From contig NC_057718.1 in NCBI RefSeq assembly GCF_004010195.1, positions 8,600,494 to 8,664,493 of the forward strand: 64,000 nt of DNA, written 5' to 3'. Shown here piece by piece: positions 4,228-60,485 of the stretch. The stretch is from Chiloscyllium plagiosum (lineage: Eukaryota). The translations under genes and the position numbers were made by a program. Position 1 is the first letter of the stretch. Each line of letters begins with the position of its first letter. A model generated the notes under the pieces. It did not search any database and was not told the origin of the DNA. It was given only the letters and a program-made list of their open reading frames with translations.

Positions 4228-4364
4228 GAGCCTCATTCCTGATGAAGAGCTTATGCCTGAAATGTTGATTCTCCTGCTCGTCAGGTGCTGCCCGACCTGC
4301 TGTGCTTTTCCAGCACCACACTCTTGACGCTAATATTCAGCATCTGCAGTCCTCGCTTTCTCCT
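4228..4364 (+). mobile_element. PLE terminal repeat, family A, with hammerhead-like core
   Basis: CTGATGA(4239)-AGAGCTTATGCCT-GAAA-TGTT followed by CTGCTGTGCTTTTCCAGCACCAC..CATCTGCAGTCCTC; same family at 7155-7487, 8205-8410, 15948-16118, 20454-20788, 23069-23155, 23705-24923, 39070-39176, 49537-49623, 59857-59920. Confidence 0.75.
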
Positions 4365-4384
4365 AGATAATCACTTCCAGTGAC

Positions 4385-4482
4385 AAAAACAGAAATCAGC
4401 AAAGAAACTCAGAAGATCTGGCAGCATCTGAGGTGAGAAAGAAGAATGAACATTCCAGGCCCAGTGACCGTTCTTCAGAACA
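4385..4482 (-). mobile_element. PLE terminal repeat, family C (partial)
   Basis: AAAAACAGAAAT..GAAACTCAG..TCTGGCAGCATCTG; ends at TTCTTCAGAAC (reverse of GTTCTGAAGAA); related to 12018-12226, 20270-20825, 57085-57210. Confidence 0.6.
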
Positions 4483-4644
4483 GTTTGGTTTTGTAATCTC
4501 ATCCAGTGTTGTTAGGTTGGGCATAAATAATTGGAACAAGCACCACGGGGAACAACTTCACAAAAAAATTCAATTTATCTCTAGTCATAGAAGAGGTACC
4601 AGAGGACCTAAAGGGGAGACAGTGTGGTATCGTTATTCAAGAAG

Positions 4645-6005
4645 GGATTAGGGGATAGACCAGGAAACTAGAGGCTAGTCTGTCTCATATTGGTGGTGGC
4701 AAAATTATTGGGGGCAATTTTGATGGACAGAATTATTCTGCAATTTGAGAGGTAGGGATTAATCAAAAACGGCTTTGTTTTGTTAAAAGGAGCCATATCT
4801 GACCAACTTGATTGAATTTTTTGAAGAGTTGACCAAGTGTGAAGATAAGGGCAATGATTGTGATATAGTCCACCTGGACTTCAGCAAGGCTTTTGCCAAG
4901 GTCCTGCGTGGGAGACTGATAGCAAGGATAAGAGCCTGTGGGATCCAAGGAAATTTTGCAAATTTGATCCACATTTGACTGAATGGAAAAAAGCAGAGGA
5001 TGATGGTTGAAGGGTTTTTTTTGACTGGGTGTTTGTATCTAGTCGGGTCCCATTATTGGGGCCCTTGCTGTGTGTGATATACATAAATGACTTGGACTTG
5101 AATGTAGGAAGATTGGTCAGTAAGTGTACGGATTATACAAAAAATTATGGGGTGATAGGATCGTGAGGAGGATGGCCTTCGACTACAGGAGGATATCAAT
5201 GGGTTGATCAGTGGCAAATGGAATTAAATCCAGATAAATATGAGGTGCTGCACTCAAGCAGGACAAACAAGGCAAGGGATTAAATGATGAATGGTAAGAC
5301 CCTGGGAAGCATTAAGGATCAAAGGGACCTTTGTGTGTATTTTCATCAGTCCCTTAAGATATCAGTACAGATAGACAAAGTGGTTAGAAGGCATATGGTA
5401 TACTTGCTTTAATTAGTCCAGGCATAGAATTTAAGAGCAGGGAGGTTATGCTGGAACTGTATTCAATACTAGTGAGGCTACAGACAGAGTATTGTGTGCA
5501 GTTCTGGAATCCACATTATAAGAGGGAAGTGATAGCACTGGACAGGGTTCAGGGGAGATTTACCAACACGGGCTGGAGATTTTCAGTTCTGCCTGGGCTG
5601 GACCGACTGGGATTGATTTCCTTTGAGCAGAGGAGACTGAGTGGGGACATGATTGAGATGGAAAAAGTGGGGACATGAATGAGATGGAAAAAGTCTTGAG
5701 GGGCATAGATAGGGTAGACATAAAGAAATGTTTCCTCTGGGTGGGGGCATCAATGACCAAAGGATATAGATTTAAGGAAATGGGTAGAAGGTTTAGAGGA
5801 GATGTGAGATAAATAATTTTCACCCAGATGGAGGTGGGAATCTGGAGCTGTGGAGGTGGTAGAGACAGAAACTCTCACAGCGTTTCAAAAGGATTTAGAT
5901 GTAGATTTGAGATACTAGGGCAGACAAGGTTATGGGAAAAGTGCTGGAAAATTGGGGGATTAGAATAGTGAAGCGGTTGTTTTTGGCTGGTGTGGAAATG
6001 ATGGA
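4645..6005 (+). mobile_element. Decayed CR1-type LINE (RT domain to 3' end)
   Basis: Frameshifted remnants of LTNLIEFF, DFSKAF, YINDLD, EYCVQFW.PHY and the typical 3'UTR. Confidence 0.9.
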
Positions 6006-6008
6006 AAT

Positions 6009-6520
6009 GAGGAAAAGCTGAGGGACTTGAGGTTGTTTTCGTGAGAGAGAAGAAGGTTGAGAGGTGACTTAATAGAGCTGCAAAGGGCCTGTACTGCGCT
6101 GTATTTTTCTATGTTCTATGTTCTATGTATGACTTGAGGTTGTTTTCGTGAGAGAGAAGAAGGTTGAGAGGTGACTTAATAAAGACATAAGATAATCAGA
6201 CGGTTAGAGAGGGGTGGACAGGGTGAGCCTTTTTCCAAGACGAGGTGGCGCGAGCACGAGGAAGCATAGCTTTAAATTGAGGGGTGATGGATATAGGATA
6301 GATGTCAGAGGTAGTTTCTTTACTCAGAGAGTATTATGGGTATGGAATGCTTTGGCTGCAACGGTAGTAGATTTGCCAACTTTACATTTAAATCTTTATT
6401 GGACAAGGATATGGACGTACATGGAATAGTGTAGGTTAGATGGGCTTCAGGTTGGTATGACAGGTCGGCGCAACATCGAGGGCCGAAGGGCCTGTACTGC
6501 GCTTTAATGTTCTATGTTAA
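6009..6520 (+). mobile_element. CR1 3' fragment containing a nested 56-bp CR1 tail insert flanked by a 51-bp duplication
   Basis: LFS.E.RRLRGDL remnant, (TTCTATG)n tails at ~6106-6127 and ~6510; exact repeat 6024-6074 = 6131-6181. Confidence 0.85.
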
Positions 6521-6790
6521 TTGATTCTGCCTCTACTGCTGTCTGGGACAGTGAGTTCCACAGATCCACAACTCTCTGATAGATGTAGTTTCTCCTCATC
6601 TCAGTTTTGAACCTACTTTCTATCACTCTTTCTCTATGCCCTGTTGGTTGAGACTGTCTCACAAGGGGGTGATCACTGCGATCCTTATCAATCTCCTTTA
6701 GCATTTTATATACCTCAGTCAGATTTCCCTTCATTCTTCTGACCTCCAGCAAGTTCAAGTCCATTCCTCATACAGCAACCCTGGATGAGA
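6520..6790 (-). mobile_element. CR1 3' ORF2 fragment
   Basis: ORF 6504-6764: RRMKGNLTEVYKML..RVVDLWNSL. Confidence 0.85.
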
Positions 6791-7010
6791 AACAGTGTAA
6801 GAGTAAAAGGTTGGAAGGAACAGTGAAAGCACAGAATAATGAATGAGAGAAAAAGAGGAGAGATAGGAACAGTAAAAAGTTGACAATATGAAAATGAGTG
6901 AGAAGTTGTGAGAAACAGACAGCGAATGAGAACTTGAGAGAGGGATAAAATGATTACCAAAGGCTTTCATGTGTCATCAAAAGTATCTGTTATCTCTTTT
7001 ACATCTGGTT

Positions 7011-7145
7011 AATTAGATAAGATTTGATTCCCTACAGTATGGAAACAGGCCATTTGACCCAACAAGTCCACACTGACCCTCCGGAGAGTAACCCACCCAG
7101 ACCAAATCCCCAACCCTATATTTACCCCTGACTAATGCACCTAAA
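7011..7145 (-). mobile_element. HE1-type SINE 3' fragment
   Basis: TGGAAACAGGCC..CCCAACAAGTCCACAC matches the 3' end of other HE1 copies. Confidence 0.75.
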
Positions 7146-7154
7146 CTAGGCAAA

Positions 7155-7487
7155 AGTGAGGACTGCAGATGCTGGAAACCAGACTCTAGATTAGAGTGGT
7201 GCTGGAAAAACACAGCAGGNNNNNNNNNNNNNNNNNNNNNNNNNNNNNNNNNNNNNNNNNNNNNNNNNNNNNNNNNNNNNNNNNNNNNNNNNNNNNNNNN
7301 NNNNNNNNNNNNNNNNNNNNNNNNNNNNNNNNNNNNNNNNNNNNNNNNNNNNNNNNNNNNNNNNNNNNNNNNNNNNNNNNNNNNTCGATTCTCCTGTTCC
7401 CTGGATGCTGCCTGACCTGCTGCGCTTTTCCAGCAACACATTTCCAGCTCTGATCTCCAGCATCTGCAGACCTCACTTTCTCCTCAA
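7155..7487. mobile_element. PLE family A fold-back element spanning an assembly gap (N 7220-7384)
   Basis: GAGGACTGCAGATGCTGGA.. on the left and ..TCCAGCATCTGCAGACCTC on the right are inverted copies. Confidence 0.7.
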
Positions 7488-7840
7488 AGGTGACTTAATA
7501 GAGACATGCAAGATAATCAGAGGGTTAGATAGGGTGGACGGGGAGAACCGTTTCCTCATATGGTGATGGCCAGCACGAGGGGACATAGCTTTAAATTGAG
7601 GGGCGATAGATATAGGACAGATGTCAGAGATAGTTTCTTTACTCAGTAAGTAGTAGGGGTGTGGAATGCCCTGCCTGCAACAGTAGTAGGCTCACCAACT
7701 TTAAGGGCATTTAAATTGTCATTGGATAAACATATGGATGAAAATGGAATAGTGTAGGTTAGATGGGCTTCAGATTGGTTTAACGAGTCAGTGCAACATT
7801 GAGGGCCGAAGGGCCTGTATTGCGCTGTAATGTTCCATGT
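7488..7840 (+). mobile_element. CR1 3' fragment, same subfamily as 6170-6520
   Basis: Near-colinear with 6170-6520, ending GGGCCGAAGGGCCTGTATTGCGCTGTAATGTTC. Confidence 0.85.
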
Positions 7841-8824
7841 TGATGGGTTGAAGGGCTTTTCATGTAGATCGCCACGAAAATACCTCTTTGAAGTGCTATC
7901 AGAGGGTATGTTATGTCCACTTGGAGATGGAGTGTTGGTTTTACCTTCAGTTGATGTCTATCCATGTACTGCTGCAGTTTTGAACAGAGGAGCTGAATGG
8001 CGTAAAGATCAACACTTGGATCCAGCAGCACATTGCATTGAGAGGACTCAGTGTTTGCACCCACAATTCACTGCACAACATATCCCAATGTTATGCATCA
8101 ACGTGGAAAATAACGGATAATCTTAGAGAGAATGAGGGCTGCAGTGGCCCTTCTAATGAAGGCTCCAAACCTGAAGTGACAGGTTTGATTTTAGCTCATT
8201 TGGAGACGGTAAGGACTGCAGATGCTAGAAGTCAGGGTCAATAGATGTGAGGCAGGAAAAGCACAGCAGGTCAGACAGCATTGAGGAGCAGGAAAGTCAA
8301 AGTTTCAGTCAATGTTGGTCAAAGGTTTTGGTCAGAAATGTTGACTCCCTGCCCTTCAGATGCTGTGTGACCTGCTGTACCTTTCCAGCTTCACATCAAT
8401 TGACTCTTAATTTTAATCCAACTAAATTGAATCAGTAATATTCTTGCTCACATTGGTCTCAGTAGATTTTAACTGGAGAATGGATCACTGTAAATATTTC
8501 AAAAGGGTTTGGAGAAAGGACAAAGGACAATAGCACTGAGTGGGCAAATCTCTCAGTGATGAAGCATCAAGGCTGTTAAAAGTGCAAGTGACGATTTTCT
8601 TTTACACAAGAGGATTTTGGATGTTTGAAGGTATTGCCAGGGAGAAGACAGTCTCGATTACAAATGGGACAGTGAAAGATGGTACCTACAACCATCTAAG
8701 GCATAACGTTACCTAGGTACAGATTCTTGAGCACAATTTCTTCGGAGAAAGAAGTTAGAAAAGTTTTTAAAAATCCAGCATTACAGACCACAGGAATAAA
8801 CTAGGAAAAGTTCCGAATAACAAA

Positions 8825-9050
8825 GTTAAAAATCACACAGCATCAGGTTATAGTCCGACAGGTTTAATTGGAAGCACTAGCTTTCGGAGCGCCGATCCTT
8901 CATCAGGTGGTTGGGCTGATCAGATGCCCAACCTGATGAAGGAGCAGGGCTCTGAAAGCTAGTGCTTCCAATTAAACCTGTTGGACTATAACCTGGTGTT
9001 GTGTGATTTTTAACTTTATACACCCCAGTCCAACACCGGCATCTCCGAAT
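8825..9050. mobile_element. PLE family B fold-back element (~190-bp hairpin) with two oppositely oriented hammerhead cores
   Basis: Arms ~8825-8916 and ~8926-9014 are reverse complements; cores at 8878-8906(-) and 8933-8961(+). Confidence 0.8.
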
Positions 9051-9209
9051 CATGATTACTGTCCAAATGACAATCCTTCCAAACCAGTCCACACTGGCAC
9101 CTAGCAAATTGTAGACTTTTCACTGTACTAATTTGAATACGTGTGATAATAAAAGGATTTCGAATTCTAAATCCAGTACAGAATGCAAGGGACTAAGGCA
9201 TTTCGAAAC

Positions 9210-9847: not shown

Positions 9848-9930
9848 AAACTTTAGCATTTTCTGGATTTTCAAGAGATATTATAATGCCTAAGCACAAG
9901 TGTGTGAACTGGATAACACTGTGGATATAG

Positions 9931-11854
9931 TTAAAAATCACACAACACCAGGTTATAGTCCATATTTGGAAGCACTAGCTTTCGGAGCACTGTTTCTTCA
10001 TCAGGTGGTTGTGGAGCACAGAATTTATAGCTAAAGATCACAGTGTCATGTAACTGAAACAATATATTGAACAAGCCGAGATTTTAGAATGGTTTACAGG
10101 TTTCAGTTCATTAATATATAAATCCCAGAACTACTTTTAAGTCACATTCTTGAAATAACTTAAGGTTTTATTAAAAACTGACATCTCAGTTCAGCGAATA
10201 CATTAAAGGTGTGAGGTTAGAGTCTGTTTTCCAAACTTGAGTCAGACTGGTTCTATTTCCAAAGCAGGAATTTATATAATGTTATATGGATTGACTGCCT
10301 TCAGGTTGTGCGCTTTTTGAGCAAAATAGAATGTGTCTGCAAATACAATTCTGCAAATGCAAATTCACCCCATAGACTTATATATGTGGTGCGTGTATGA
10401 GAGCAAGAGAGAGTATGAGTGTGCGCATGTGAGTGTGAGTGCGTGTGAGAGAGTATGTGTTTGTGTGTGTGCGTGCTTGGAAGCATGTGCATGACAGTGA
10501 TGGATTATAAGCCTGTGAGAGGGTGTGCGCGTGGGTATGAGTATTCGGGGTGTATGTGTGTGTATCAGACAGAGCATGTGAATGACAGAGGTGTGTGTGT
10601 GTGTGTGTGTGGTGCAATGGGGTCACCTGTAGTGTGATATGAACCCAAGGTTCCGGTTGAGGCCATCCCCATGGATACCGAACTTGGCTATCAGCCTCTG
10701 CTCGGCCACTCTGCATTGTTGCATGGTGTCCATTCATCTGTTGTCTTCGCGTCTGCTTGGTCTCACCAATGTACCATGCCTTAGGCATCCTTGCCTGCAG
10801 TGTGTGAGACAGACAACATTGACCAAGTCACTGGAGTCCCTGCCGCTACATGGTGGGTGGTGTCCCCTCTCTCATACACAGGTGCTCTCTCAGACATACA
10901 CACATACACCCCTCCCACACACTCACACCCACACACACACCCTCTCACAAGCTTATTCTCCATTATACTCACGCGCACACTCTACCAAGCACATACACAC
11001 ACAAATACACAATCTCTCACGTGCACTTGCACTCATGCGCACACTTACATGCACACACTCACACTGTTGCTCTCTCTCATACACGCGTGCACACATATAC
11101 GTCTATAATAGGTGAATTTGTATTTGCAGAGTTGTTTTTACAGTTACATTCCATTTTGCTCAAAAAGCACACAACCTGCAGGCAGTCAATGCTACAGTCA
11201 GTCCATGTAATATTTTATAAATTCCTACTTTGGAAATAAAACCAGTCTAACTCAAGATTGGGTTACAGACAGACTCTAACCACACACCTTTAATGCATTG
11301 TCTGAGCTGAGATGCCACCTATCTTTAAAAAACCTGAAGTTATCTCGAGAACGTGACTTAAAAGATGTTCTGGGATTTACATGTTAATGAACTGAAACCT
11401 GCAACTCATTCTAAACGATGAAAGACTTAACAGCAACCTAACCTTGTTCAATTTATCATTTCAGCTGCATGACACTGTGATCTTTTGCTGTAAATTCTGA
11501 GTCTTATGGTCCTGCTCCACTAGTTACCTGATGAAGGAGCAGCGCTCTGAAAGCTTATACTTCCAAATAAACCTGTTGGAAACCTGAGGAAAGGCTGAGG
11601 CACTTGGGGTTGTTTTCATTGGAGAAAAGAAGGTTTAGGGGTGACTTGATAGAGGTGTACAAGATGATTAGGGGTTTAGATAGGGTTGACCGTGAGAACC
11701 TTTTTCCACGTATGGAGTCAGCTATTAGGCGCAACATCGAGGGGCGAAGGGCCTGTACTGCGCTGTATTCTTCTATGTTCTATGTTCTATGGACTGTAAC
11801 CTGGTGTCATGAGATTTTTAACTTTGTCCACCCCAGTCCAACACTGACACCTCC
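9931..11854. mobile_element. PLE family B insertion: long inverted arms around a GIY-YIG remnant
   Basis: Arms ~9931-10590 vs ~10868-11822 are inverted; central minus-strand PKAWYIGETKQTRRQQMNGH (GIY-YIG 'YIGET'); perfect 15-bp TSD ACACTGTGGATATAG at 9916-9930 and 11855-11869. Confidence 0.85.
11581..11790 (+). mobile_element. Short, internally deleted CR1 3' fragment nested in the PLE arm
   Basis: GLFSLEKRRFRGDLIEVYKMIRG; (TTCTATG)n tail; the PLE sequence resumes after it. Confidence 0.85.
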
Positions 11855-12017
11855 ACACTGTGGATATAGATAAGGTAAAGTTGCCATAGGCCTAAGAGGA
11901 TCATAGGCCTGCTCTCTCTTTAGTGGCTTAGCATGAGGATCACCATATGACAGATAAGGGGAGAGGTTGAGATACGTAGTCCTTCGTGGTAACCTCAGGT
12001 GGTAGAGGATATGTAAA

Positions 12018-12226
12018 CAAAAACAGAAATTGCTGGAAAAGCTCGACAGGTCTGGCAGCATCTGTGGAGAGAACTCAGAGTTAAGGTTTCGGATCTGAAG
12101 ACCCTTGCTAAAAACTCAGACTGGAACCATTAACTCTGACTTCTCTCCACAGATGCTGCCAGCCCTGCTGACCTCTTCCAGCAACTTCTGTTTTTGTTTC
12201 TGATTTACAGCATCTGCTGTTTTTTT
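12018..12226. mobile_element. PLE family C fold-back element
   Basis: Inverted arms AAAAACAGAAATTGCTGGAA../..TTCCAGCAACTTCTGTTTTTG; flanking direct repeat GT(A/G)GAG(G/C)ATATGTAAA at 12002-12017 and 12227-12242. Confidence 0.7.
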
Positions 12227-15812: not shown

Positions 15813-15947
15813 CTGATGGGAAGTTTAACTTGAGGGTCACCATGTCTCAGGTGAGGAGAGACGTTGAGATGAAAAGGCCTATACAGTCACCTCAGTCAGT
15901 GTGAGAACTGAACCCATGCTGTTGGTATATTACTGCATGCAAACCAG

Positions 15948-16118
15948 GTCAGGCAGCATCCGAGGAGCAGGAGAATCGATGTGTCGGGCATAAGCCCTTC
16001 ATCAGGAATATGCCTGAAACATCGACTCTCTTGCTCCTCGGATGCTGCCTGACCTGCTGTGCTTTTCCATCACCACACTCTCAACTCTATCTCCAGCATC
16101 TGCAGTCCTCACTTTCTC
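15948..16118. mobile_element. PLE family A fold-back element
   Basis: Inverted arms meeting near 16008; flanking repeat CTGCAT(G/A)CAA(A/C)CCAG at 15933-15947 and 16119-16133. Confidence 0.75.
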
Positions 16119-19540: not shown

Positions 19541-19649
19541 CCGGCTGACCTCTCCCACAGACCACGAGCCGCTGCAGACGATGCAGGCGTTGCTTTAACA
19601 AGCCAATCCAAACCCATTGAACCGAAGTAACTTATCCTCAATCCTGAAG

Positions 19650-19765
19650 TTAAAAATCACACAACACCAGGTTATCGCCCAACAGGTTTATCTGGAAGCA
19701 CCATCTTCCTGGTTTAATGTGATTTTTAACTTTGTACACCCCAGTCCAACACTGGCACATTCAAA
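19650..19765. mobile_element. PLE family B mini fold-back
   Basis: TTAAAAATCACA../..TGTGATTTTTAA inverted ends; flanking repeat TC(A/G)AT(C/T)CTGAAG at 19638-19649 and 19766-19777. Confidence 0.7.
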
Positions 19766-20269: not shown

Positions 20270-20825
20270 ACACACTAGATCTTGCTGCAGAAACTCAGCA
20301 GGTCTGGCAGGATCTGTGGAGAGAGAAAGCAGAGTTACCGTTTCAAGTCCAGTGACCCTTTGAAACACTAACTTTGTTGCTGTCTCCACAGATGCTACCA
20401 ACCTGCTGAATTTCACCAACAATTTCTGTTTTGTATGTTTCAGATCTCCAGCAACTTGGAGTAAATGAGGACTGCAGATGCCGGAGAGTCAGAGTAGAGA
20501 TAGAGTAGTGCTGGAAAAACACAGCAGGTTGGGCAACATCCGAGGAGCAGGAGAATCAACGTTTCGGGCAGGAGCCTTCTCCGGGACTGGGGAGTGGGAA
20601 GGGGGCTGAGAGATAAATATGGGGAGGTGGGGCTAGGTGAAAGGTCGGCGGGATGGTAAGAAGTGGGCAAAGGTAGGAGATGATGGTGATAGGTTAGTGG
20701 GAAGTGTGGTGCGGATAAGTAGGAAGGAAGACGGACAGGTAGGTCAGGTGAAGAGGGCAGATTTGAGTCAGAGGGTTGCGTTATCTAATCAGATCTCCAG
20801 CATCCACAGCTCTTTGTTTCACTAT
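20270..20825. mobile_element. PLE family C fold-back with a nested family A fragment (20454-20788)
   Basis: The nested insert is flanked by an exact 14-bp repeat TCAGATCTCCAGCA at 20440-20453 and 20789-20802. Confidence 0.75.
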
Positions 20826-21782: not shown

Positions 21783-22235
21783 CAGTCTTGGGGAAGCCCA
21801 GCACAGACTCCTGGTCATTAGGAAGCCCAGCACAGACTCCTGGTCTTGGGGAAGCCCAGCGCAGACTCCTGGTCTTGAGGAAGCCCAACGCAGACTCCTG
21901 GACTTGAGGAAGCCCAGCACAGACTCCTGGTCTTGGGGAAGCCCAGCGCAGACTCCTGGTCTTGGGGAAGCCCAGCGCAGACTCCTGGTCTTGAGGAAGC
22001 TGAGCGCAGGCTCCTGGTCTTGAGGAAGCCCAGCACAGACTCCTGGTCTTGGGGAAGCCCAGCACAGACTCCTAGTCTTGAGGAAGCCCAGCACAGACTC
22101 CTGGTCTTGAGGAAGCCCAGCACAGACTCCTGGTCTTGGGGAAGCCCAGCACAGACTCCTGGTCTTGGGGAAGCCCAGCACAGACTCCTGGTCTTGAGGA
22201 AGCCCAGCACAGACTCCTGGTTTTGAGGAAGCCCA
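21783..22235. repeat. 29-bp minisatellite, ~15.5 copies, consensus GGAAGCCCAGCACAGACTCCTGGTCTTG(A/G)
   Basis: Units start at 21792, 21821 ... 22227 (period 29); no spacers. Confidence 0.97.
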
Positions 22236-23704: not shown

Positions 23705-24923
23705 TTGAGAAAATGAGGACTGCATGTGCTGGAGAGTCAGAATCAAAAAGGGTGGTGCTGGAAAAGCACAGCAGGTCAGGCAGCATCAGAGGAGCAAGAG
23801 AGTCAACGTTTCTGGCATAAGCCCTTCATCAGGAATGGGGAGGTGGGGGCTGGTGATGAAAAGGGCTGAGAGATAAATAGGAGGGTGGGGGTGAGGTTGA
23901 GGGTGAGGTAGCTGGAGGTGGTGAAGGGGGCNNNNNNNNNNNNNNNNNNNNNNNNNNNNNNNNNNNNNNNNNNNNNNNNNNNNNNNNNNNNNNNNNNNNN
24001 NNNNNNNNNNNNNNNNNNNNNNNNNNNNNNNNNNNNNNNNNNNNNNNNNNNNNNNNNNNNNNNNNNNNNNNNNNNNNNNNNNNNNNNNNNNNNNNNNNNN
24101 NNNNNNNNNNNNNNNNNNNNNNNNNNNNNNNNNNNNNNNNNNNNNNNNNNNNNNNNNNNNNNNNNNNNNNNNNNNNNNNNNNNNNNNNNNNNNNNNNNNN
24201 NNNNNNNNNNNNNNNNNNNNNNNNNNNNNNNNNNNNNNNNNNNNNNNNNNNNNNNNNNNNNNNNNNNNNNNNNNNNNNNNNNNNNNNNNNNNNNNNNNNN
24301 NNNNNNNNNNNNNNNNNNNNNNNNNNNNNNNNNNNNNNNNNNNNNNNNNNNNNNNNNNNNNNNNNNNNNNNNNNNNNNNNNNNNNNNNNNNNNNNNNNNN
24401 NNNNNNNNNNNNNNNNNNNNNNNNNNNNNNNNNNNNNNNNNNNNNNNNNNNNNNNNNNNNNNNNNNNNNNNNNNNNNNNNNNNNNNNNNNNNNNNNNNNN
24501 NNNNNNNNNNNNNNNNNNNNNNNNNNNNNNNNNNNNNNNNNNNNNNNNNNNNNNNNNNNNNNNNNNNNNNNNNNNNNNNNNNNNNNNNNNNNNNNNNNNN
24601 NNNNNNNNNNNNNNNNNNNNNNNNNNNNNNNNNNNNNNNNNNNNNNNNNNNNNNNNNNNNNNNNNNNNNNNNNNNNNNNNNNNNNNNNNNNNNNNNNNNN
24701 NNNNNNNNNNNNNNNNNNNNNNNNNNNNNNNNNNNNNNNNNNNNNNNNNNNNNNNNNNNNNNNNNNNNNNNNNNNNNNNNNNNNNNNNNNNNNNNNNNNN
24801 NNNNNGGTGAGGTAGCTGGGAAGTCGACAGGTAGATGCAGATGTGGGGTGATTGGGATAGGTCGGTGGGAAAGGTGGAATGGATAGGTGGGAAGAAAGAT
24901 GGACAAGTGGGTCAGGTCAAGAG
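23705..24923 (-). mobile_element. PLE family A 3' end with hammerhead core, spanning gap N 23932-24805
   Basis: Minus-strand ATTC-CTGATGA-AGGGCTTATGCCA-GAAA-CGTT at 23805-23836; flanking repeat GGGACT at 23699-23704 and 24924-24929. Confidence 0.7.
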
Positions 24924-25004: not shown

Positions 25005-25272
25005 CTCTTTGAGAAGATTTGTAGCTCAGGTTGAGGTTCTGAATGTAGGTTTGCTTGTTGGGGTGGAAGGTTTATTTTCAGACATTTCGTCACCATACTA
25101 GGTAAAATCGTCAGTGAGCCTCCGGACGAAGCAGTGCTGATGATTCCTGCTTTCTATTTATATGTTTGGGTTTCTTTGGGGTTGGTGATGTTATTTCCTG
25201 AGATGATGTCATTTTCTATGGTGATGGGGCAGTAAATCAGGTCCAAGTCAAAGAACAGGAAATGATATCATC
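25005..25272 (-). mobile_element. PLE family D terminal region
   Basis: Reverse complement of 60240-60485; core CTGACGA..GGTGAC-GAAA-TGTC at ~25081-25114(-). Confidence 0.8.
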
Positions 25273-27825: not shown

Positions 27826-27854
27826 GAAATTAACTGTTGTCACAGTGGATGATG

Positions 27855-29045
27855 TGGAGGTGTCAGTGTTGGACTGGGGTGGACAAAGTTAAAAATCACA
27901 CAACATTTGGTTATAGTCCAACAGGTTTATTTGGAAGTACTAGCTTTCGGAGCCACGCTCCTTCAACAGGTAACTAGTGGAGTAGGATCATAAGACACAG
28001 AATTTAAAGCAAAAAATCAAAGTATCATGCAATTGATACAATATATTGAACAAACCTAGATTGTTGTTAAGTCTTTCATCTTTTGGAATGAGTTGCAAGT
28101 ATTGTTGCATTAATATGTAAATCCCAGAACTACTTCCAAGTCACATTCACGAGAAAACTCATGGATTGGATGCTAGGAAATTGTTTCCGTTAGGCGAGGA
28201 GACTAGGACCCGTGGACACAGCCTTAGAATTAGAGGGGGTAAATTCAGAACAGAAATGCGGAGACATTTCTTCAGCCAGAGAGTGGTGGGCCTGTGGAAT
28301 TCATTGCCGCAGAGTGTAGTGGAGGCTGGGACGCTAAATGTCTTCAAGGCAGAAATTGATAAATTCTTGATGTCACAAGGAATTAAGGGCTATGGGGAGA
28401 ATGGTAAGTGGAGTTGAAATGCCCATCAGCCATGATTGAATGGCGGAGTGGACTCGATGGGCCGAATGGACTTACTTCCGCTCCTATGTCTTATGGTCTT
28501 ATGGTCTTATGGTCTTATGGTTTTAATTTTTTAAAAAGTGACATCTCAGCTCAGATAATGCATTCAAAGTGTGAAATTAGAGTCTGTCTGTATTCCAATC
28601 TTGAGTCAGACTGGTTCTATTTCCAAAGTAGGAATTTATATAATGTTACATGGATTGACTGCCTGCAGGTTGTGCGCTTTTTGAACAAAAGTAGAATGTA
28701 TCTGCAAATACAATTCTGCAAATGCAAATTCACCCCATAGACGTATAGGTGTCTCTGCGTTCATTTGGGGGGGGGGGGGGGAAGAGAGAGAGAGAAAGAG
28801 TGTTTGTGTGTGTGTACATGTGTGGGAGAGAGTGTGAGTGTATGCAAGTGAGTGTGTATGTGTGTGCATGCTTGGGAGAGTGTGTGCATGCTCTTACATA
28901 CTCACACATTCACACAGACCGTCTCTCATACACATGCTGTCTGTCAGACACACATACATATACCCTACACACACAGACACACGTGCACACCCTCTCACAG
29001 GCTTATACTCTGTCACACTCATGCACACATTCTACCAACCAACTA
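27855..29045 (-). mobile_element. PLE family B copy with a short inverted arm, interrupted by a CR1 3' fragment (28159-28520, +)
   Basis: Colinear with 9931-10590; hammerhead-like core at 27938-27972(-); the CR1 insert has GHSLRIRGGKFRTEMRRHFFSQRVVGLWNSLP and a (TCTTATGG)n tail. Confidence 0.85.
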
Positions 29046-32945: not shown

Positions 32946-33961
32946 TTGGCAGTCAACACACCTTCCCCTCAACGTTCGAATATTCAAAGTCAACTTCAGC
33001 TGAATTTCACTTCTACAAGTTCCAGAGTTCCAACATGCTGCAGAGCTGATATTTTGACGCCTCAGTCTCTGCCAGGTATGCCATAACCTGGTGGCAAAGC
33101 ATTGGTAGGACAGGGCGACAAAATATTAATTTTTTTAGTCCTTTACAGAAGACCTTTACTGGAAGAAATTATGAAGGTCATTAGCTTCAGACAGGCTATT
33201 TGTTTACTAAGCACAACGAGTATGACAGGGGAAAAAATTGCATTTTGAAATGTAGCCGCTATTTTCATTTTCATTTAAATTTACTAATGTGTTATGAATA
33301 CTTACAGAATCTACAATTTTTTGAGGGAAATTTCAGTCAGGTTTATATGTGCAGGAAAGTTTGGATCATTATCAAAACGTGGAGGAAATCATCAGTTTAA
33401 ATGTTTGTTTGTTTTCTGTCTTCAGGAACACTATTCCATGGATAGTTAACATAAATTAAATTGCAAACAAACATTTTTTTAACTATTTCTTGGTCTTTGG
33501 TTCAGTAACTCGCACACAAAACCAATGTATAATAACTGCAAAAGATGCTCCTATAAGTTACATGCAGAGATTTATAATATTTTTAAATTAAGCTCTGTGC
33601 ATTTAGTACCATTCTCCAGCTCTCTATCTGCCATCCATTCATAGGAACACAGTTCCTTTATATGGCTTCATAATAAAATATTGCATTCTTTCAGGGGCTT
33701 CCTGAGCTGCTGAGTGGACGAATGAGGTTCTCCCACATGACAGGAACAGGAAGTAGGTATAGGAAGAAATTAAAACAGCTGTTGAGTCTTCTCTACCTTT
33801 CAAGACAATCTTATCTCGGGCCCCACTTTCCCATCTGCTCTTGATATCCCATGATCCTTTGAGAGATCAAACATCTGTCTATTCAAGCCTTAAATTGATT
33901 CAATGCTAGAGCTTCCAAAAATCTCTGTGTGGAAAATTCCAAAAATTTACCTTCCTTGGAT

Positions 33962-34252
33962 ATAAGTTAGCTCACTGAGCTGGAAGGTTTATTTTCAGAC
34001 GTTTTGACACCATACTAAGTAACATCATCAGTGAGCCTCCAGTGAACTACTGGTGTCAGTGACCTGGTTTCTATTTAAGTGTTTAGGTTTCCTTGGGTTG
34101 GTGGCATCATTTCCTGTGGTGATGTCATTTCCTGTGGTGATGTCATTTCTTGTTCTTTTTCTCAGAGGGTGGCAAATGGGGTCCAAGTCAAATGGGGTCC
34201 ATCTCAACGAACATATTGACTTGGACCCCATTTACCACCCTCTGAGAAAAAG
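33962..34252 (-). mobile_element. PLE family D terminal region with short inverted arm, nested in a CR1 remnant
   Basis: Homologous to 25005-25272 and 60240-60485; 36-bp inverted repeat 34156-34191 / 34216-34251. Confidence 0.8.
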
Positions 34253-37432: not shown

Positions 37433-38029
37433 CCAGTGGTGTGTGTCCTGTACTAATTCACTGATAAGGGAATCAGATGAGGTTTTAATAACAATTGATG
37501 ATGGCAACCTTGATTGAGATTAACATTTAATTGTGTTGACTGCATTTAACTTCTAAGAGCTGCAATCATGGGATTTGAACTCATATTCCCGGAGTATTGA
37601 CCAAGGTCTCTGGATTATTGCCACACCAATATTCCACCCCTTTGCTGCTTTAGCCATTCTGCCAAATGGTTTGTCCAGTTTTCATGTGCTGTCGTGCAGG
37701 AAGTACAGTGCTAGCCTTGATCACATTTCAATATTAATATACTGAATGTGTGCAGCACTGATGGAAGAGATTGTAAAGACACTGAGACTAAAAAAGGAAT
37801 GTTAACATGGAGAAATATGTAGGTTTGGGTGCAGCCAGATGGTTTAATTCTGGGGAAAACATGAGGAGTGCTAATGGTGTGGCAAAGGAAGTAGGTTTGG
37901 AGGAGGCTCAACAAATGCTCGAGTTTAAGTCGGGGCTGGAGAACTTTACAGACAAAAGGAGAGGCAAGATGGATGTGCAGGAATTTGAATGTAATTTCAT
38001 TCTTATGGCACTGCAGCTAGATTGAAAGC

Positions 38030-38309
38030 TAGAGGCATGGCACTCATCCACAGATTCAATCAATTAACACATCGACCTGGACCCAATATACTGACCACTG
38101 CAACGGACAGCTGGAACTGACAACCGGAAGCGGCAGATTCCAACCACTACAAATGGCGGAGGAAAGATCACAGAAGTGCTTCACAGGAGGCTCCCGAACA
38201 CTGAGGATGTCACCTAGACAGGGGACGAAACGTCTGCAACACAAATTCCCAGCTCGGCGAACAGAACTACAACAACGAGCACCAGAGCTACAAATCTTCT
38301 CACGAACTT
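38030..38309 (+). mobile_element. PLE (family D-like) 3' fragment with intact hammerhead core
   Basis: Starts in LEAWHSS.DSIN.HIDLDP (GIY-YIG C-terminus); core at 38201-38234; exact 12-bp TSD TAGATTGAAAGC at 38018-38029 and 38310-38321. Confidence 0.85.
38199..38236 (+). ncRNA. Putative minimal type I hammerhead ribozyme
   Basis: CA-CUGAGGA-U-GUCACCU(AGAC)AGGGGAC-GAAA-CGUC-UG: conserved core, stem II, palindromic ACGU stem III, GUC cleavage triplet; activity not shown. Confidence 0.7.
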
Positions 38310-38709
38310 TAGATTGAAAGCCATTGTGAGTCACAATAGGTGAATGGGAAATCAGGTTAGAAGCTGCAGAGTTTTGGATGAGCTCTAGATTATTGTGGAT
38401 GACAGATGGAAGGGCAGACATTGGTATCATCAAATCTGGATATGATAAGACGTCTTGATGACTATTCTGGCAGCAGGTAGGCTGAGGGTCCAGTGGAGGT
38501 GGGAACTACTGCAGAAAGGAATGGTCCTTAATTTAAAGTTAGAAACATAGCTCTGGGTCAGACAGGACAGGGAGCAGAAAGAATCCAGCCAGCATAGAAA
38601 CATGAAATCTTCAGACTCAAGAGTGACAGCAAGGACAACAGAACGGAATTGGCACTTTACTCAAGGAAAGGAAGAGACAATGACACAATAGTCTTGCGTA
38701 GGAGACAGA

Positions 38710-47142: not shown

Positions 47143-47279
47143 NNNNNNNNNNNNNNNNNNNNNNNNNNNNNNNNNNNNNNNNNNNNNNNNNNNNNNNNNN
47201 NNNNNNNNNNNNNNNNNNNNNNNNNNNNNNNNNNNNNNNNNNNNNNNNNNNNNNNNNNNNNNNNNNNNNNNNNNNNNNN

Positions 47280-49536: not shown

Positions 49537-49623
49537 CTGAAACTTTATTGCTGGAACAGCACAGCAGGTCAGGCAGCATCTAGGGAACAGAAGATTCGAC
49601 GTTTCGGGCACATGCCCTTCTTC
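49537..49623 (-). mobile_element. 87-bp PLE family A insert with intact hammerhead core
   Basis: Minus-strand CTGAAGA-AGGGC(ATGT)GCCC-GAAA-CGTC at 49598-49625; 9-bp TSD AGTATTTAG at 49528-49536 and 49624-49632. Confidence 0.8.
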
Positions 49624-50129
49624 AGTATTTAGGCAACAGTGCTCATAACAGTAAAGGCTAGATTTTACAGACACTGCCCACCCCAGCTAAAATATCCGGG
49701 GATGAGCCTGCCCATGATTCCCACAGCTGCTCCAGAGTACTTCAATGCTGGGAGCTTTGTCAAATACTTTCAAATGAAGATCCAGCCTAGATTAAGGACA
49801 GGTTACACCTTTGAGAATTGTGGCCAAAATAATTGATTGGCAGCACTGTAGCTCCAGCAGCATCAGTTGGGAATGGTGGCCGCTGCGGGAATTTCTTTTT
49901 ATAAAATTTATTCACTTTGTGGAATGTGGGGGTTGCCGACTGGACCCAGCATTTATTACCCGTCCTTAGTTGCCCCTTGAGATGCTGCTGGGGTGAGCTG
50001 CCTGCTTGAACCGCTGCAGCCCACTTGTGGGTTAACCAACAATGCCCTTAGGAAGGGAATTCCAGGACTTTGACCCAGTGACACTGAAGGGACAGTGATA
50101 TATATCAAGTCAGGATGGTGAATGACTTA

Positions 50130-55606: not shown

Positions 55607-55754
55607 TCATGGTACCCCACAGAAGCTTTCTTTCTTCCCTGGCTGCTGACACCATTCCTTTGCCTGCATGACTTTCTTTCTCTCTTCCTGAGCTTTGACT
55701 CCATCTATCTATCTATCCACTCCTTCCCACCCCACATCTCCTATCATCAGCATA

Positions 55755-57045
55755 GAAAATAGAACATAGAACAATACAGCGCAGAACAGGTCCTTTGGCC
55801 CTAGATGTTGCGCCGACCTGTGAACTATTCTCAGCTCTTCCCCCTACACTATCCCATCATCATCCATGTGCTTATCTAAGGATTTTTTAAAATCTCCCTA
55901 ATGTGGCTGAGTTAACTACATTGGCAGGTAGGACATTCCACGCCTTTACCACTCTCTGAGGAAAGAACCTGCCTCTGACATCTGTCTTAAATCTATCACC
56001 CCTCACTTTGTAGTTATGCCCCCTCGTACAAGCTGATGTCATCATACTAGGCGAAAACTGTCACTGTCTATCCTATCTGATCCTCTGATCATCTTGTATG
56101 TCTCTACGAAATCCCTTCTTAGCCTTCTTCTTTCCAACGAGAACAGACCCAAGTCTCTCAGCCTTTCCTCATAAGACCTTCTCTCCAGACCAGGCAATAT
56201 CCTGGTAAATCTCCTCTGCACCTTTTCCAATGCTTCCACATCCTTCCCAAAATATGGTGACCAGAACTGTATACAATATTCCAAGTGTAGCCACATTAGC
56301 GTTTTGTATAGTTGCAGCAGAATATTGCAGCTCTGAAACCCATTCCCTCTACCAATAAAACCTAACACACCGTATGCCTTCTTAACAGCACTATCAACCT
56401 GGGTGGCAACTTTCAGGGATCTATGTACATGGACTCCAAGCTCCCCCTGCACATCCACATTACCAAAAATTTATCCATTGACCCAGTACTCTGCCTTCCT
56501 GTTATTCTTCCCAAAGTGCAACACCTCACATTTAGCTGCATTGAACTCCATTTGCCACCTCTCAGCCCAATTCTGCAGTTTATCCAAGTCCCCCTGCAAC
56601 CTGTAACATTCTTCCATACTGTCCACTACTCCACCAACTTTAGTGTCATCTGCAAATTTACTAATCCATTCATCTATGCCTGCGTCTAAGTCATTTATAA
56701 AAATGACAAACAGCAGTGGTCCCAAAACAGATCCTTGTGGCACACCACTACTAACCAGACTCCAGGCTGAATATTTTCCATTAACCACCACTCGCTGTCT
56801 TCTTTCAGAAAGCCAGTTTCTAATCCAAACTGCTAAATCACCCTTAATCCCATTCCTCTACATTTTCTCCAACAGCCTACCATGTGAAACCTCATCAAAG
56901 GCTTTACTGAAGTCCATGTACACCACATCAACTGCCCTACCCTCATCTACATGCTTGGTCGCCTTCTCAAAAAACTCAATGAGGTTTGTGAGACATGACC
57001 TGCCCTTGATGAAACCAGGTTGATGATCTGAAATCAAATTGTTGC
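55755..57045 (-). mobile_element. CR1 LINE, RT to 3' tail
   Basis: GRSCLTNLIEFFE, YMDFSKAFD, SGVPQGSVLGPLLF, FADDTK; (TTCTATG)n tail. Confidence 0.95.
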
Positions 57046-57084
57046 TTGCTAGCAAGCAACAAATAGCAGCTTTTCCAAGCTACT

Positions 57085-57210
57085 CGCTGAAGATGGGTCA
57101 CTGGACTTGAAACGTTAGCTCTGTTTTCCTCTTCTACAGATGTTGCCATACCTGCTGAGTTCCTGCAGCAGTTTCTGTTTTTGTTGATGATTGCCAGCAT
57201 CCACAGGCCA
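57085..57210 (+). mobile_element. PLE family C terminal repeat with hammerhead-like core
   Basis: CTGAAGA(57087)-TGGGTC(ACTG)GACTT-GAAA-CGTTA. Confidence 0.7.
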
Positions 57211-57214
57211 ATAG

Positions 57215-57480
57215 GATGAGAGGAGAAGAAATTGCATCACCCAGAGAGTAGGGGGCCTGTGGAATTCTCTTCCACAGGAAATTGTTGAGATGAAAAAAAT
57301 ATTGGATGTTTTCAAGAAGGATTCAGATGTTGTCCTTAGGGATAAAGATCAAAAGGTGTGGGAGAAAGTGAGATCAGGATGCTCATGTTGGATGATCAAT
57401 CATGACTATGTTGAATGGTGGAGCTGGCTTGAAGGGCTGAATGGCCCACTTGTGGTCTTATTTTTCTATGTTTCTATGAT
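57215..57480 (+). mobile_element. CR1 3' fragment
   Basis: Remnant of MRRN..TQRV..LWNSLP and 3'UTR with (TTTCTATG) tail. Confidence 0.8.
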
Positions 57481-58446
57481 ATCAGTTTAATCCTTTCTAG
57501 CTACTGTATATGACTTAAGGTATCAGCGGCTGGTTGAGTAGATAGTAACCTCACACCAGATTGGAAAGGTTGTGAGTGTGACCATAATCCAATCTGACTC
57601 TCCACAGTAGGAGGTGCTATCGTTTACATTGGATGTTAGATTGAACTGTTGTGTGCCCACTCCCTGTCAGGGAAACATAAAAGACCAAGGGGTGTTAATT
57701 TAAGGAAGAGCATGGAAGTCCTCCATTGTGTCCTGGCCAATGAGCACCCCTCAAAGGACCTCCCAGAGAGCCCAGATAATCTGATTATTGTCACATGCTG
57801 ATTGTGGGACTTTGAAAAAGAGGTGATATGGGTTATTTTCAGCAGTGAAGAGCTGAACATTGTGATACATGGTGGAGCAGCAGTTCTCAAACTATAGGCC
57901 ACAGGAGCAGTGAATGCAATGAGAAGCTCCTTTCCCCTCTGAGCCTGCATCACCCACACAGAGCAGTACCATTCAGCTGTTGTCTAGCTCTGCTCTCCTC
58001 TTGGTCTCTCTGGATGGGACCTGAGTTCCTGCTTGTGGTTCTCCCATTGAACCTCAAAAACCCCAGCCTCCTATGTGAAACAGTGATGCCAACACAGCTG
58101 AACTGCAGGGTGACTGAGCCCGAACTAATCATGAGGAAACCTACCAAACAGCAGTGATTCGTAGTCAGTAAAGGAATTCGCCAGAGCTGCAAATGTAACC
58201 CACATGATTGAGGCAAATGTACAAAAATAAAACACCAGAATCAATACAGCTGGCAGCTGCCCCATTATGCAAAGAGGGAACCACATCTGGAGTTCACCCA
58301 TCCTTGCAGTGTATAGTTTAAAAATATACAAATGTTGAGAAAACTGTCTGTGAGTTTGTTAACCTACAGATGTACAACTCAAAGCAGATCACAGTTCTTT
58401 TACTATTCTGTGTGGCAGTGCAGAACAACTTGTGCTCTGAAGCCAC

Positions 58447-58720
58447 AGAATCCCTATAATGTGGAAGCAGGCCATTCAGCCCATCAGGGACTCTTCAAAG
58501 AGCATCCCACACCTACCCACCTTATAACCCTGCATTTCCCTTGGCTAATTCACCCAACCTGCACATCTCTGGATACTATGGATAATTCCCCATGGCCAGT
58601 CCAATTAACTTGCACATCTTTGGACTGTGGGAGGAAACCCACACTGACACAGGGAGAATATGCAAACTCCACAAAGACAGTTGCCTGAGGGTGGAATTGA
58701 ACCCAGGAATTAGCACTGCG
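58447..58720 (-). mobile_element. HE1-type V-SINE (decayed)
   Basis: TGCACATCTTTGGACTGTGGGAGGAAACCCAC..GCAAACTCCAC. Confidence 0.8.
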
Positions 58721-59424
58721 CAGCAGTGCACAGACCAGCCAAGAGCCTCAGTTTGCACTCTGAGGCTTCCTGACCAAGAAGCATGAGCTGGAGCAGCTCA
58801 GATAAATCTGTGGATGGTGAGCACATAAAATAATAAGTTTTACAAAGTTTCTGTAAAAGCTCAGATTTTCATATTCACACAATAAGTACATGTTAATAAT
58901 TATATACTGCTATTCTGCTACACTGTTTTATTGCTACTTTGTTTTACTGGTGTCTGGTGTCATATTAATTTTCAAGCATTAAATAGCATTGGATAGTAGT
59001 TTGTAAAGAGACTTTATAAAGGTTTTAATCAGGTTTTCTGATGAACAGGTGATGAACCATCTAAATGAGAGAGCGGGGGAGGGCTGCATTCAGTGATTAA
59101 AAATATCTTGAATTTGTATGGCGCTTTCACAACCTCACAATGTCCCTGTGCATTTTACAATGAATGAAGAGCAATGCTGCAGACGTATGTTCTCCAAAGT
59201 ATGAATTCACAATGAACCATAAGACGCAAGAGCTTTCTCCCCCATAAATCTTGATCCCCTTATTAATTATGTCTGTCTCTGCCTTGAATATAGTTAATGG
59301 CCAAGCCTTGACAACTCTCTGTGGTAAAGGATTCCATAGATTCACTGCTCTCTGAGAGAAGATGTTCTTCCTCTTCGCCATCTTAAATGGGAGATCCCTT
59401 ACTCTGAATATTTCATTATTTCAC

Positions 59425-60485
59425 GATAGAACATTATTTCAAGGAGCCACCACACACTGCAGCATAAAGGAACTACGCAGAGCAGAGAAAAATCACCTAC
59501 AATGTATTCAAAAAGAATGGGTACCCAATGAACACAGTCCGCCGATTTCTCAGCAACAAACCCAGACAAGCAGACAAAACACATCCAGAAACCCTAACCT
59601 CTCTCCCCTACATCAAAGACATCTAGGAAATGACTGCCAGACTACTCAAACCACTTGGCAACATGGTAGCCCACAAACCCACCAAAACACTAAAACAGCA
59701 GCTAATGAACTTGAAGGACCTTATACAGACAACAAGCAAAACTAATGTCATTTACAAAACACCTTGTAAGAACTGTAACAAACACTACATTTGACAAACA
59801 GGCAGAAAACTAGCCACCAGGATACATGAACATCAACTAGCCACAAAAAGACATGAGCTGATGATGTGTTGCTGGAAAAGCGCAGCAGGTCAGGCAGCAT
59901 CCAAGGAGCAGGAGAATCGAGATTTGACTGAGACAAGGTGGGGGGAGGGGAAATGAGGAAACTGGAGAAATCTGAGTTCATCCCTTGTGGTCGGAGGGTT
60001 CAGACCAACAAAATTTGGACCCAACCAGGACAACCAGTACCTACAACAAATCCGAACAACTGACACAGAAAGACATGACCCACTCTCACTAGTATCCTCA
60101 CATACAGATGAGGAAGGACACCACTTTGAATGGGACAACACATCCATTCTTGGACAGGCCAAACAGAGACACGCACAAGAATTCCTAGAAGCATGGCATT
60201 CCAACCAGAACTCTATCAACAAACACATTTACTACCCCCTGAGAAAAAGAACAGGAAATGACATCACCACATACAATGACGTCACCATAGGAAATGATAT
60301 CACCAACCCAAGGAAACCTAAACACATAAATAGAAAGCGGGCCACGCCACCAGTGCTTCATCCGGAGGCTCACTGAAGATGTTACCTAGTATGATGATGA
60401 AACGTCTGAAAACTAACCTTCCAACTCAGTGAGCAAACCTACATCCGAAACTTCAACCTGAGCTACAAATCTTCTCAAAACTCAC
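59425..60485 (+). mobile_element. PLE family D: linker, GIY-YIG endonuclease and terminal repeat, interrupted at 59857-60068
   Basis: RTLFQ.ATTHCS..KKNGYP..LPYIK..VAHKPT..NVIYK.PC..C...YI.QTGRKLATRIHEHQ..RHDPLSLV..GHHFEWDNTSIL..FLEAWHS; core CTGAAGA..GAAA-CGTC at 60373-60406. Confidence 0.9.

Follow-up and report, generated by a model that had tools for sequence, protein, structure and literature searches.

A stretch of 64,000 nucleotides of the genome of the shark Chiloscyllium plagiosum (contig NC_057718.1, positions 8,600,494 to 8,664,493 of the forward strand; hereafter the window) carries many short motifs resembling hammerhead ribozymes (HHRs). Very probably, these motifs are minimal type I hammerheads located in the 3' modules of at least three lineages of Penelope-like elements (PLEs), present mostly as dead-on-arrival fragments; they most likely act, weakly, on the transcripts of their own elements. 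Endonuclease (EN) open reading frames (ORFs) upstream of the motifs in families D and A, pieces resembling reverse transcriptase (RT) in family B and the insertion hallmarks of PLEs all point to this assignment, in agreement with the original prediction. The four families that it distinguished (A, B, C and D) are real, with homologous tails in A and C and at least two subfamilies within D. The motifs had also been placed in terminal repeats, which has to be amended: their position is fixed at ~80-125 nt from the 3' end of the element, and not within a classical terminal repeat.

A loose pattern (CTGANGA-N8-30-GAAA) matched the window 20 times, against 6.4 ± 2.7 expected from 100 shuffles of the window. 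More than ten loci had been announced as fitting the hammerhead pattern, and a recognisable CUGANGA...GAAA unit was indeed found at 13 of 13 cited loci, each on the strand stated. Only six of them (8933+, 11528+, 38201+, 49598-, 57087+ and 60373+) pass a strict descriptor of the minimal HHR that combines the core, one (optional) unpaired nucleotide after A9, 4 bp or more in stem II, a palindromic A-N-N'-U and a cleavable H17; 200 dinucleotide shuffles yielded 0.01 ± 0.10 such matches and the reversed window none. The other seven are decayed, with mutations in the core, stem II or palindrome (4239+, 23805-, 8878-, 9976-, 27941-, 25081- and 33993-); the core of 27941- is spelled CTGTTGA and the motif at 4239+ ends in GAAATGTT. 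For several loci, the sequence first quoted was the archetype of the family and not the actual letters. In a blast census of the window, 33 copies of the 3' modules were counted; a core can still be recognised in 13.

No match to the Rfam hammerhead models was obtained in the whole window, either at the gathering score or at E<=10, nor in a search of 581 nt. The Rfam model Hammerhead_1 (RF00163) shares type I topology and the catalytic core with the present motifs, in which helix III and the loop contacts are missing; the silence of Rfam fits motifs of this kind.

The core CUGANGA...GAAA and a cleavable H17 are present in the six strict loci, all of which (6/6) have the unpaired nucleotide after A9, a 1-nt offset, and a stem II of 4-6 bp. 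Their palindrome, which would permit a dimer, is ACGU in families A, C and D or AGCU in family B, and there is no helix III. Stem II had been described as wholly different between families with its pairing preserved, and comparison of helix II across the families upholds this:

Family A: GGGC/GCCC
Family B: GGAGC/GCTCC
Family C: GGGTC/GACCY
Family D: GTCACCT/AGGGGAC, with one A-G mismatch
Subfamily D': GTTACC/GGTGAC

Between families, the pairs of helix II change on both sides. At 10.1-11.1, families A, B and D have G-C, and the window C copy and B1/B4 have G-U. The sequences themselves show the 10.2-11.2 pair to be G-C in A, B and C and U-A in D, and the 10.3-11.3 pair to be G-C, A-U, C-G or U-G depending on the family. 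Helix I was scored in samples of genomic matches, namely the first 30 of A, the first 30 of D and 8 of B. Pairing in register reaches 0.88-1.00 at positions 1-3, except for 0.23 at position 3 in family A, and is mostly <=0.2 in shifted registers, with a few exceptions; the sequence of the helix differs by family. Contiguous pairing amounts to 2 bp in 19/30 A copies, 3 bp in 28/30 D copies and 3 bp in 5/8 B copies. In the MAFFT alignments, stems of unequal length are not aligned structurally.

The minimal HHRs described from PLEs (PMC4209133) share most of these features: the core boxes, the unpaired nucleotide between 9 and 10.1, the G10.1-C11.1 pair, and a palindromic 15.2-16.2 without helix III. 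According to the same account, they also form several consensus families per genome, adjoin an RT/GIY-YIG ORF, and occur mostly as dispersed single motifs along with opposite-strand pairs. Helix II is shorter here in families A, B and C (4-5 bp) than in the Schistosoma set reported there (7-8 bp), and the copy number is far higher here, bearing in mind that the descriptors of the two studies are not identical.

The sampled A, D and B copies have a fixed end ~80-125 nt past the motif, and homology decays upstream. In family D, a recurrent ORF stops at a TAG in the stem II loop; its longer public relatives, of which the closest named ones are from carpet sharks, carry RVT_1, HTH_animal and GIY-YIG. 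Nearly all D copies are matched by a home-made EN profile built from public relatives, the end of which lies 56-59 nt before the start of the hammerhead. In the window, this profile has one match at 59630-60277 (whole-target E = 7e-67), upstream of the motif at 60373, and another at 38029-38139, upstream of the one at 38201. The family D EN is homologous to the GIY-YIG region of the public protein P0014 (25.9 bits in Pfam). Where stem II begins there is an ATG, the start of the next frame, which in most D copies runs through the tail without a stop.

Family A is associated with a second EN, encoded at loci L001 and L065, whose first 39 residues pass the Pfam GIY-YIG model (25.2 against a cutoff of 22.6 bits). 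It has 91,656 first-look candidates in the genome; 150 scored matches are 92-100% identical, and an A-type motif lies in the 3'UTR, 210-219 nt past the EN stop, in 4/4 matches chosen by list position alone. In family B, the 40 scored matches to a 1.56-kb query end together at query positions 1526-1561, mostly 1545-1557, and their 5' starts are scattered from 1 to 1005. RT-homologous pieces are visible at L014, L037 and L089, those of L089 lying upstream of a family B motif on the same strand.

A close parallel is the Poseidon element PAc of Anolis carolinensis (PMC11167929), in which, as described there, an ATG at stem II likewise opens a downstream frame, the genomic end downstream of the ribozyme is fixed, no reads end at the cut site, and inverted insertions are consistent with priming from both strands. 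Here, by contrast, the upstream ORF also terminates inside the ribozyme (TAG in the stem II loop), and the likeness on which a putative assignment to the same clade is based is one of arrangement in the sequence.

Exact family patterns were searched over the 3.56-Gb assembly, with the same patterns read backwards as control:

Family A pattern: 93,197 genome matches, reversed control 0
Family B pattern: 23,406 genome matches, reversed control 0
Family D pattern: 6,705 genome matches, reversed control 0
Family C pattern: 2,341 genome matches, reversed control 0
Family-agnostic CTGANGA-N11-27-GAAACGTC: 138,196 genome matches, reversed control 601

The exact family patterns thus amount to at least 125,649 genome matches against none in the controls, or ~35 motifs per Mb, which substantiates the very large dispersed population anticipated from the window. 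For comparison, ~9,000 minimal HHRs were reported in Xenopus tropicalis and ~4,000 in the coelacanth (PMC4209133), and more than 6,000 hammerheads in one coral and as many as ~120,000 copies of canonical retrozymes in the axolotl (both PMC7229834). The density in the shark is well above the published counts that we found, including those ~120,000 copies in the ~32-Gb axolotl genome. Full-text literature searches on shark or Chiloscyllium together with Penelope returned no published account of shark hammerheads. Penelope is merely named among the repeats in the available text of the whale shark genome paper (PMC8455134), and a 2026 preprint, as far as its available text goes, samples one cartilaginous fish and covers tandem retrozymes only (bioRxiv 10.64898/2026.07.22.740005).

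As the original prediction itself acknowledged, the association of PLEs with hammerheads is not new (PMC4209133, PMC8557442, PMC11167929). These sources also cover the heterogeneity of multiple families, dispersed single motifs, opposite-strand pairs, tails and inverted copies. Since the link was established beforehand, the main result is the correct placing of the finding; the features of note here are the density and the very clean hairpin insertions bracketed by target-site duplications (TSDs).

These insertions have several of the marks expected of PLEs. Two 3' ends ~35 nt apart are used, at +90 or +125 in family A and at ~+78 or ~+115 in family D, and PLE insertions are described as having a 30-40-bp 'tail' extension, often at one end only (PMC8557442). 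Among 100 listed D motifs, the pairs within 1 kb comprise 13 in the (-,+) orientation and none in the (+,-) or same-strand orientation; among 100 listed B motifs there are six (-,+), one (+,-) and no same-strand pairs, all counted by hand from the listed motifs. The window itself contains seven (-,+) pairs, and about a quarter to half of the sampled copies stand in head-to-head pairs. In CTGAAGA-type A copies, the apparent upstream homology is the reverse complement of the ribozyme and tail, with the junction 1-4 nt before CUGA, and such an inverted arm occurs in 9/19 copies.

Exact flanking repeats of at least 11 nt were found around 11/19 of these copies against 0/19 controls, one of the 11 being an internal repeat. 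Single units as well as whole dimers lie between TSDs of 12-17 bp; in L041 and L067, which are single copies, the duplication directly adjoins the C of CUGA. No TSDs were found for the head-to-head pairs of the window itself. Where one TSD brackets a whole dimer, that dimer represents one integration event. Dimers of this origin agree with the cleavage and extension of both strands by the Anolis protein (PMC11167929).

The architecture described for PLEs by Craig et al. 2021 (PMC8557442) includes copies strongly truncated at the 5' end, inverted repeats that arise from a 5'-truncated copy in inverse orientation, and the tail extension, all of which are shared. The shark copies depart from it in that, in A copies of the CTGAAGA type and in many B copies, both arms consist of no more than ribozyme and tail, and in forming near-perfect hairpins of ~200-280 bp within one TSD. 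The composite at L068, made of an inverted 160-nt arm and a 350-nt A copy, recurs at four further loci with identical junctions and 88-92% identity; it has itself been copied.

The PLE copies and modules of the window are the following (module first, HHR where recognised):

4238-4362, +: family A module, decayed HHR at 4239-4266 (stem II mismatches; GAAATGTT)
4383-4478, -: C-type module, tail-to-tail with the A module 4238-4362
7153-7219 (-) and 7385-7482 (+): family A inverted arms, with an N run at 7220-7384 between them
8203-8396: family A head-to-head pair, cores lost, arms 8203-8306 (-) and 8335-8396 (+)
8822-9053: family B head-to-head pair, left arm 8822-8908 (-) with decayed HHR at 8878-8906
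8929-9053, +: right arm of the pair 8822-9053, intact HHR at 8933-8961
9921-10403, -: inverted counterpart of the B copy 11074-11580, decayed HHR at 9976-10004
11074-11580, +: family B copy truncated at the 5' end, upstream sequence shared over ~450 nt, intact HHR at 11528-11556
12016-12214: family C head-to-head pair, arms 12016-12090 (-) and 12119-12214 (+)
15939-16118: family A head-to-head pair, arms 15939-16006 (-) and 16009-16118 (+), junction within stem II of the right arm
19647-19757: family B head-to-head tail fragments, 19647-19707 (-) and 19708-19757 (+)
20283-20358 (-) and 20360-20432 (+): family C head-to-head pair, then an A module at 20459-20588 (-)
23706-23833, -: family A module, decayed HHR at 23805-23832 (GCCA for GCCC; GTT)
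23932-24805: N run, ~100 nt upstream of the A module 23706-23833 on the element strand
25008-25120, -: family D' module, decayed HHR at 25081-25114 (GAAATGTC; weak stem II)
27849-27971, -: family B module, dead core at HHR 27941-27969 (CTGTTGA), shared upstream sequence to ~28747
33958-34178, -: family D' copy, dead HHR near 33998-34031 (CAAAACGTC for GAAACGTC)
38029-38310, +: family D PLE copy truncated at the 5' end, EN ORF represented by its C-terminal end (38029-38214), intact HHR at 38201-38234, tail to 38310
49540-49625, -: family A module, intact minimal HHR at 49598-49625 (CTGAAGA A GGGC-ATGT-GCCC GAAACGTC)
57083-57205, +: family C module, HHR at 57087-57116, stem II GGGTC/GACTT with G-U wobbles at 10.1 and 10.2
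59428-60480, +: family D' PLE copy, GIY-YIG EN homology at 59428-60277, HHR at 60373-60406, tail to 60480

In the family B pair, the palindrome extends over 8822-9017 with an arm identity of 87.6%, and the exact TSD is lost. Family homology is absent upstream of CUGA in the A copy at 49598-, and the tail of the family C module 57083-57205 is homologous to that of family A. The HHR at 38201-38234 contains the TAG stop of the EN ORF and the ATG at stem II, and that at 60373-60406 has a stem II of just 4 bp by the strict descriptor.

Other features of the window stand beside these copies. An A-type tail fragment without ribozyme (59864-59920, -) interrupts the EN region of the D' copy, a nested insertion of one PLE into another. 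In E-value mode, Rfam returned four miRNA-like hairpins, all below the gathering score (34160-34247, 15938-16062, 12021-12192 and 8242-8399); three of the four overlap head-to-head PLE pairs, and 34160-34247 lies at the 5' end of the D' copy 33958-34178. A further N run is found at 47143-47279. A degenerate (TTAGGG)n-like array at 60710-60881 (period 6, 28.7 copies, 74% matches) begins ~230 nt past the D' 3' end, and a 29-nt minisatellite occupies 21785-22235 (15.6 copies, 92% matches), where overlapping ORFs gave weak, sub-threshold matches to Pfam DUF families. Searched against the ORFs of the window, Pfam returned only two RVT_1 fragments, 2601-3221 (-) and 56471-56857 (-), neither tied to the motifs. 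They have no tblastn match to PLE-type proteins, and are probably remnants of long interspersed elements unrelated to the hammerhead modules.

Among the long D copies elsewhere in the genome (L082-L084), N runs cover the interior of the ORF between the 5' region of the element and the visible EN, and apparent ORFs of ~1,100 amino acids in these copies were discarded as artefacts of the N runs. L082 has a diverged EN with an HHR ~4.2 kb upstream on the same strand, absent in L083 and L084, which might represent a direct pseudo-LTR (partial tandem) as found around full PLE copies. Scanned with the Pfam GIY-YIG model, the genome as a whole yielded a single uninformative match, and nothing of relevance came from a search of PDB sequences with the D EN segment. 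Segments of the family D EN, with 61-92% identity, occur in predicted isoforms of MAP3K7, NT5DC1 and CUEDC2 of related sharks (P0004, P0005 and P0012), which suggests exonised fragments or artefacts of the gene models.

Several observations weigh against the assignment to PLE hammerheads. Pfam gives the family D EN itself no score, and its GIY-YIG call leans on public homologues that do score, on the home-made profile and on Atlas look-alikes, in whose clusters only 15-20% of members have GIY-YIG. For family B, the evidence for an EN is marginal, a decayed GIY-YIG-like stretch ~950 nt upstream of the motif at L085 (i-E = 0.007). Evidence of a coding partner covers A, B and D, and family C is a putative member. 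RT and EN in one intact ORF were not seen directly, the RT interiors of the long copies consisting of N. Helix I, at 2-3 bp, is below the 4-5 bp of the published minimal-HHR descriptor (PMC4209133), and in this resembles a Drosophila virilis variant with a 2-bp helix I given in the same source. Minimum free energy folding of monomers and dimers, cofolding included, did not return the hammerhead fold. RNA run X9, labelled as from the same species, contains no molecule ends at the cut site 38234/38235, across which the depth rises smoothly; its library is single-cell and polyA-primed, poorly suited to seeing RNA ends, and the lack of an end pile-up is accordingly weak evidence. Finally, CTGAAGA-type units have a discrete 5' end, at the ribozyme, for which simple random truncation does not account.

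This last point is the basis of the strongest alternative, in which the short copies are a self-propagating, non-autonomous retroelement of ~125-155 nt, composed of the hammerhead and a tail recognised by RT and mobilised in trans by PLE proteins, whose RNA begins at the first nucleotide of helix I. We regard it as quite possible, if not the reading that we favour. The families differ in this respect. Family D copies and the CTGATGA/TTTT subfamily of A are truncated copies of ORF-bearing elements, with continuous 5' truncation, whereas A copies of the CTGAAGA type, like many of family B, start within a few nucleotides of the ribozyme as minimal units, or are head-to-head dimers of such units. 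The tiny inserts of the original prediction correspond to the latter group, a possible non-autonomous lineage; the former are ordinary 5'-truncated copies.

CTGAAGA-type A copies share nothing upstream of about -4 save the inverted arm, and in 8/10 single copies homology is lost within 3-12 nt of CUGA. In L041 and L067, the TSDs directly adjoin the motif (-1/0); dimer junctions fall at -1 to -4, and four of the six listed (-,+) B pairs are only 37-47 nt apart. The minimal template active in vitro for the Anolis PLE is of similar size (PMC11167929). Against this alternative, it is based on small samples, of 19 copies in A and 8 in B; neither a master copy nor a promoter nor a pol III head was found, and a strong stop of reverse transcription at a structured or protein-bound ribozyme would give the same boundary. 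In one copy, L068, ARAGORN found no genes and Rfam no match indicating a pol III head of the type found in short interspersed elements. The first apparent discrete unit, a 350-nt element with a sharp common 5' boundary, was ruled out as an artefact, the boundary being where the truncated query itself ended.

The stronger version of this proposal, that a hammerhead with ~90-125 nt of tail is a complete trans-mobilised retroelement in the order of 10^5 copies, often as TSD-flanked perfect hairpins produced by both-strand priming, is put forward only tentatively. If true, it would be the smallest PLE parasite yet seen, its RNA 5' end at the first nucleotide of helix I, and long double-stranded RNA, along with miRNA-like precursors, would come from its hairpins, a large source that has gone unrecognised.

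A second alternative would retain the motif as a structural or protein-binding element of the complex that initiates reverse transcription, with no self-cleavage in vivo; we consider this unlikely, though deserving of attention. Reads cross the cut site with smoothly rising depth and no pile-up of ends, helix I is minimal, and catalytic mutants of the Anolis ribozyme left insertion in vitro unaffected, with no RNA-seq ends at the site (PMC11167929). All positions of the catalytic core are nevertheless conserved across families with wholly different stems, which makes binding alone hard to accept as an explanation. The Anolis ribozyme does cleave in the presence of the protein, and is rescued by the compensatory double mutant C3G/G8C (PMC11167929); moreover, a polyA single-cell library is poor for seeing RNA ends.

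The RNA data come from 296 reads of run X9, which cover the element only (38014-38317), mostly in one orientation. RNA and DNA read coverage are both confined to this interval, with alternative 3' ends at ~38275 and 38310, and the Anolis Poseidon likewise has no RNA-seq reads starting or stopping at the cut site (PMC11167929). Copies starting exactly at the cleavage site, sought as a trace of cleavage left in the genome, gave no clear signal: tails without the ribozyme box number 0/50 in D, 5/56 in A and 6/37 in B, and are mostly junctions of inverted pairs or register slips. Three variants within the hammerhead (A>G at 38216, A>T at 38229 and C>G at 38231), two of them in the GAAAC core box, occur in ~15% of the run X9 reads. 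The same variants are below 1% in DNA contigs, a soft contrast given that contigs under-report rare variants. They suggest preferential expression of one variant copy whose core is dead.

It had further been supposed that the dispersed copies, as active ribozymes, could cut any host pre-mRNA transcribed through them, which we find highly improbable. The genome does hold more than 10^5 near-intact motifs, and the PLE segments in the MAP3K7, NT5DC1 and CUEDC2 isoform models of related sharks imply that such elements are transcribed within genes. But helix I has only 2-3 bp, reads that span the cut site uncleaved dominate, and published minimal HHRs are inactive as monomers and weak as dimers in vitro (PMC4209133). 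The Anolis PLE ribozyme requires the protein of its element for cleavage (PMC11167929). In the commonest pairing, head-to-head, the two ribozymes sit on opposite strands and no dimer can form within one transcript. Taken together, the inactive monomers, the need for protein, the opposite-strand pairs and the uncut reads leave host pre-mRNA cutting unsupported.

There is equally little to recommend an origin from animal non-LTR retrozymes, short tandem hammerhead repeats spreading via circular RNAs. Retrozymes (PMC7229834; Li et al. 2026 preprint) are, like the present copies, hammerhead-bearing, non-coding, PLE-associated and short; they too have type I hammerheads, and are found alongside PLEs in vertebrates, one cartilaginous fish among them (bioRxiv 10.64898/2026.07.22.740005). 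They consist, however, of head-to-tail tandems with canonical hammerheads and circular RNAs (PMC7229834), whereas the shark motifs are minimal hammerheads in dispersed singles or head-to-head dimers. The window contains no tandem array with a hammerhead unit, no same-strand pairs within 1 kb occur among the 100 listed D or the 100 listed B motifs, canonical helix III and loop-loop contacts are lacking and the Rfam models silent, and ORF-derived sequence lies upstream of the copies. Chance matches, or MITE-like DNA transposons with terminal inverted repeats (MITE, miniature inverted-repeat transposable element), which the palindromic dimers with flanking duplications and the miRNA-like hairpins scored in Rfam E-value mode superficially recall, are refuted by the counts against shuffled and reversed controls (0.01 expected per window; reversed controls 0) and by arms that are PLE 3' ends, also found singly and attached to EN ORFs.

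Under the favoured assignment to PLE hammerheads, the insertions could be explained by a mechanism extrapolated from the Anolis Poseidon in vitro. Reverse transcription would start internally, just downstream of the ribozyme, on element RNA bound by the protein, and both DNA strands would be cut and extended. An internal start combined with both-strand priming would produce the fixed 3' end, the ~35-nt tail extension, 5' truncation and inverted dimers. Most of the more than 10^5 copies would be dead-on-arrival fragments, which would carry the ribozyme because it adjoins the site of initiation. The ribozyme most likely acts weakly, helped by protein or by a second copy, on the transcripts of its own element, and would be no general cutter of host RNA.

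The copies described here are invisible to Rfam and resemble MITEs or miRNA hairpins, and the gene models of related sharks already absorb PLE fragments as exons. Their TSD-bracketed hairpin insertions record single integration events, and the Chiloscyllium plagiosum genome as a whole offers natural replicates of what was found in vitro with Anolis, namely internal initiation, both-strand priming and a minimal template.

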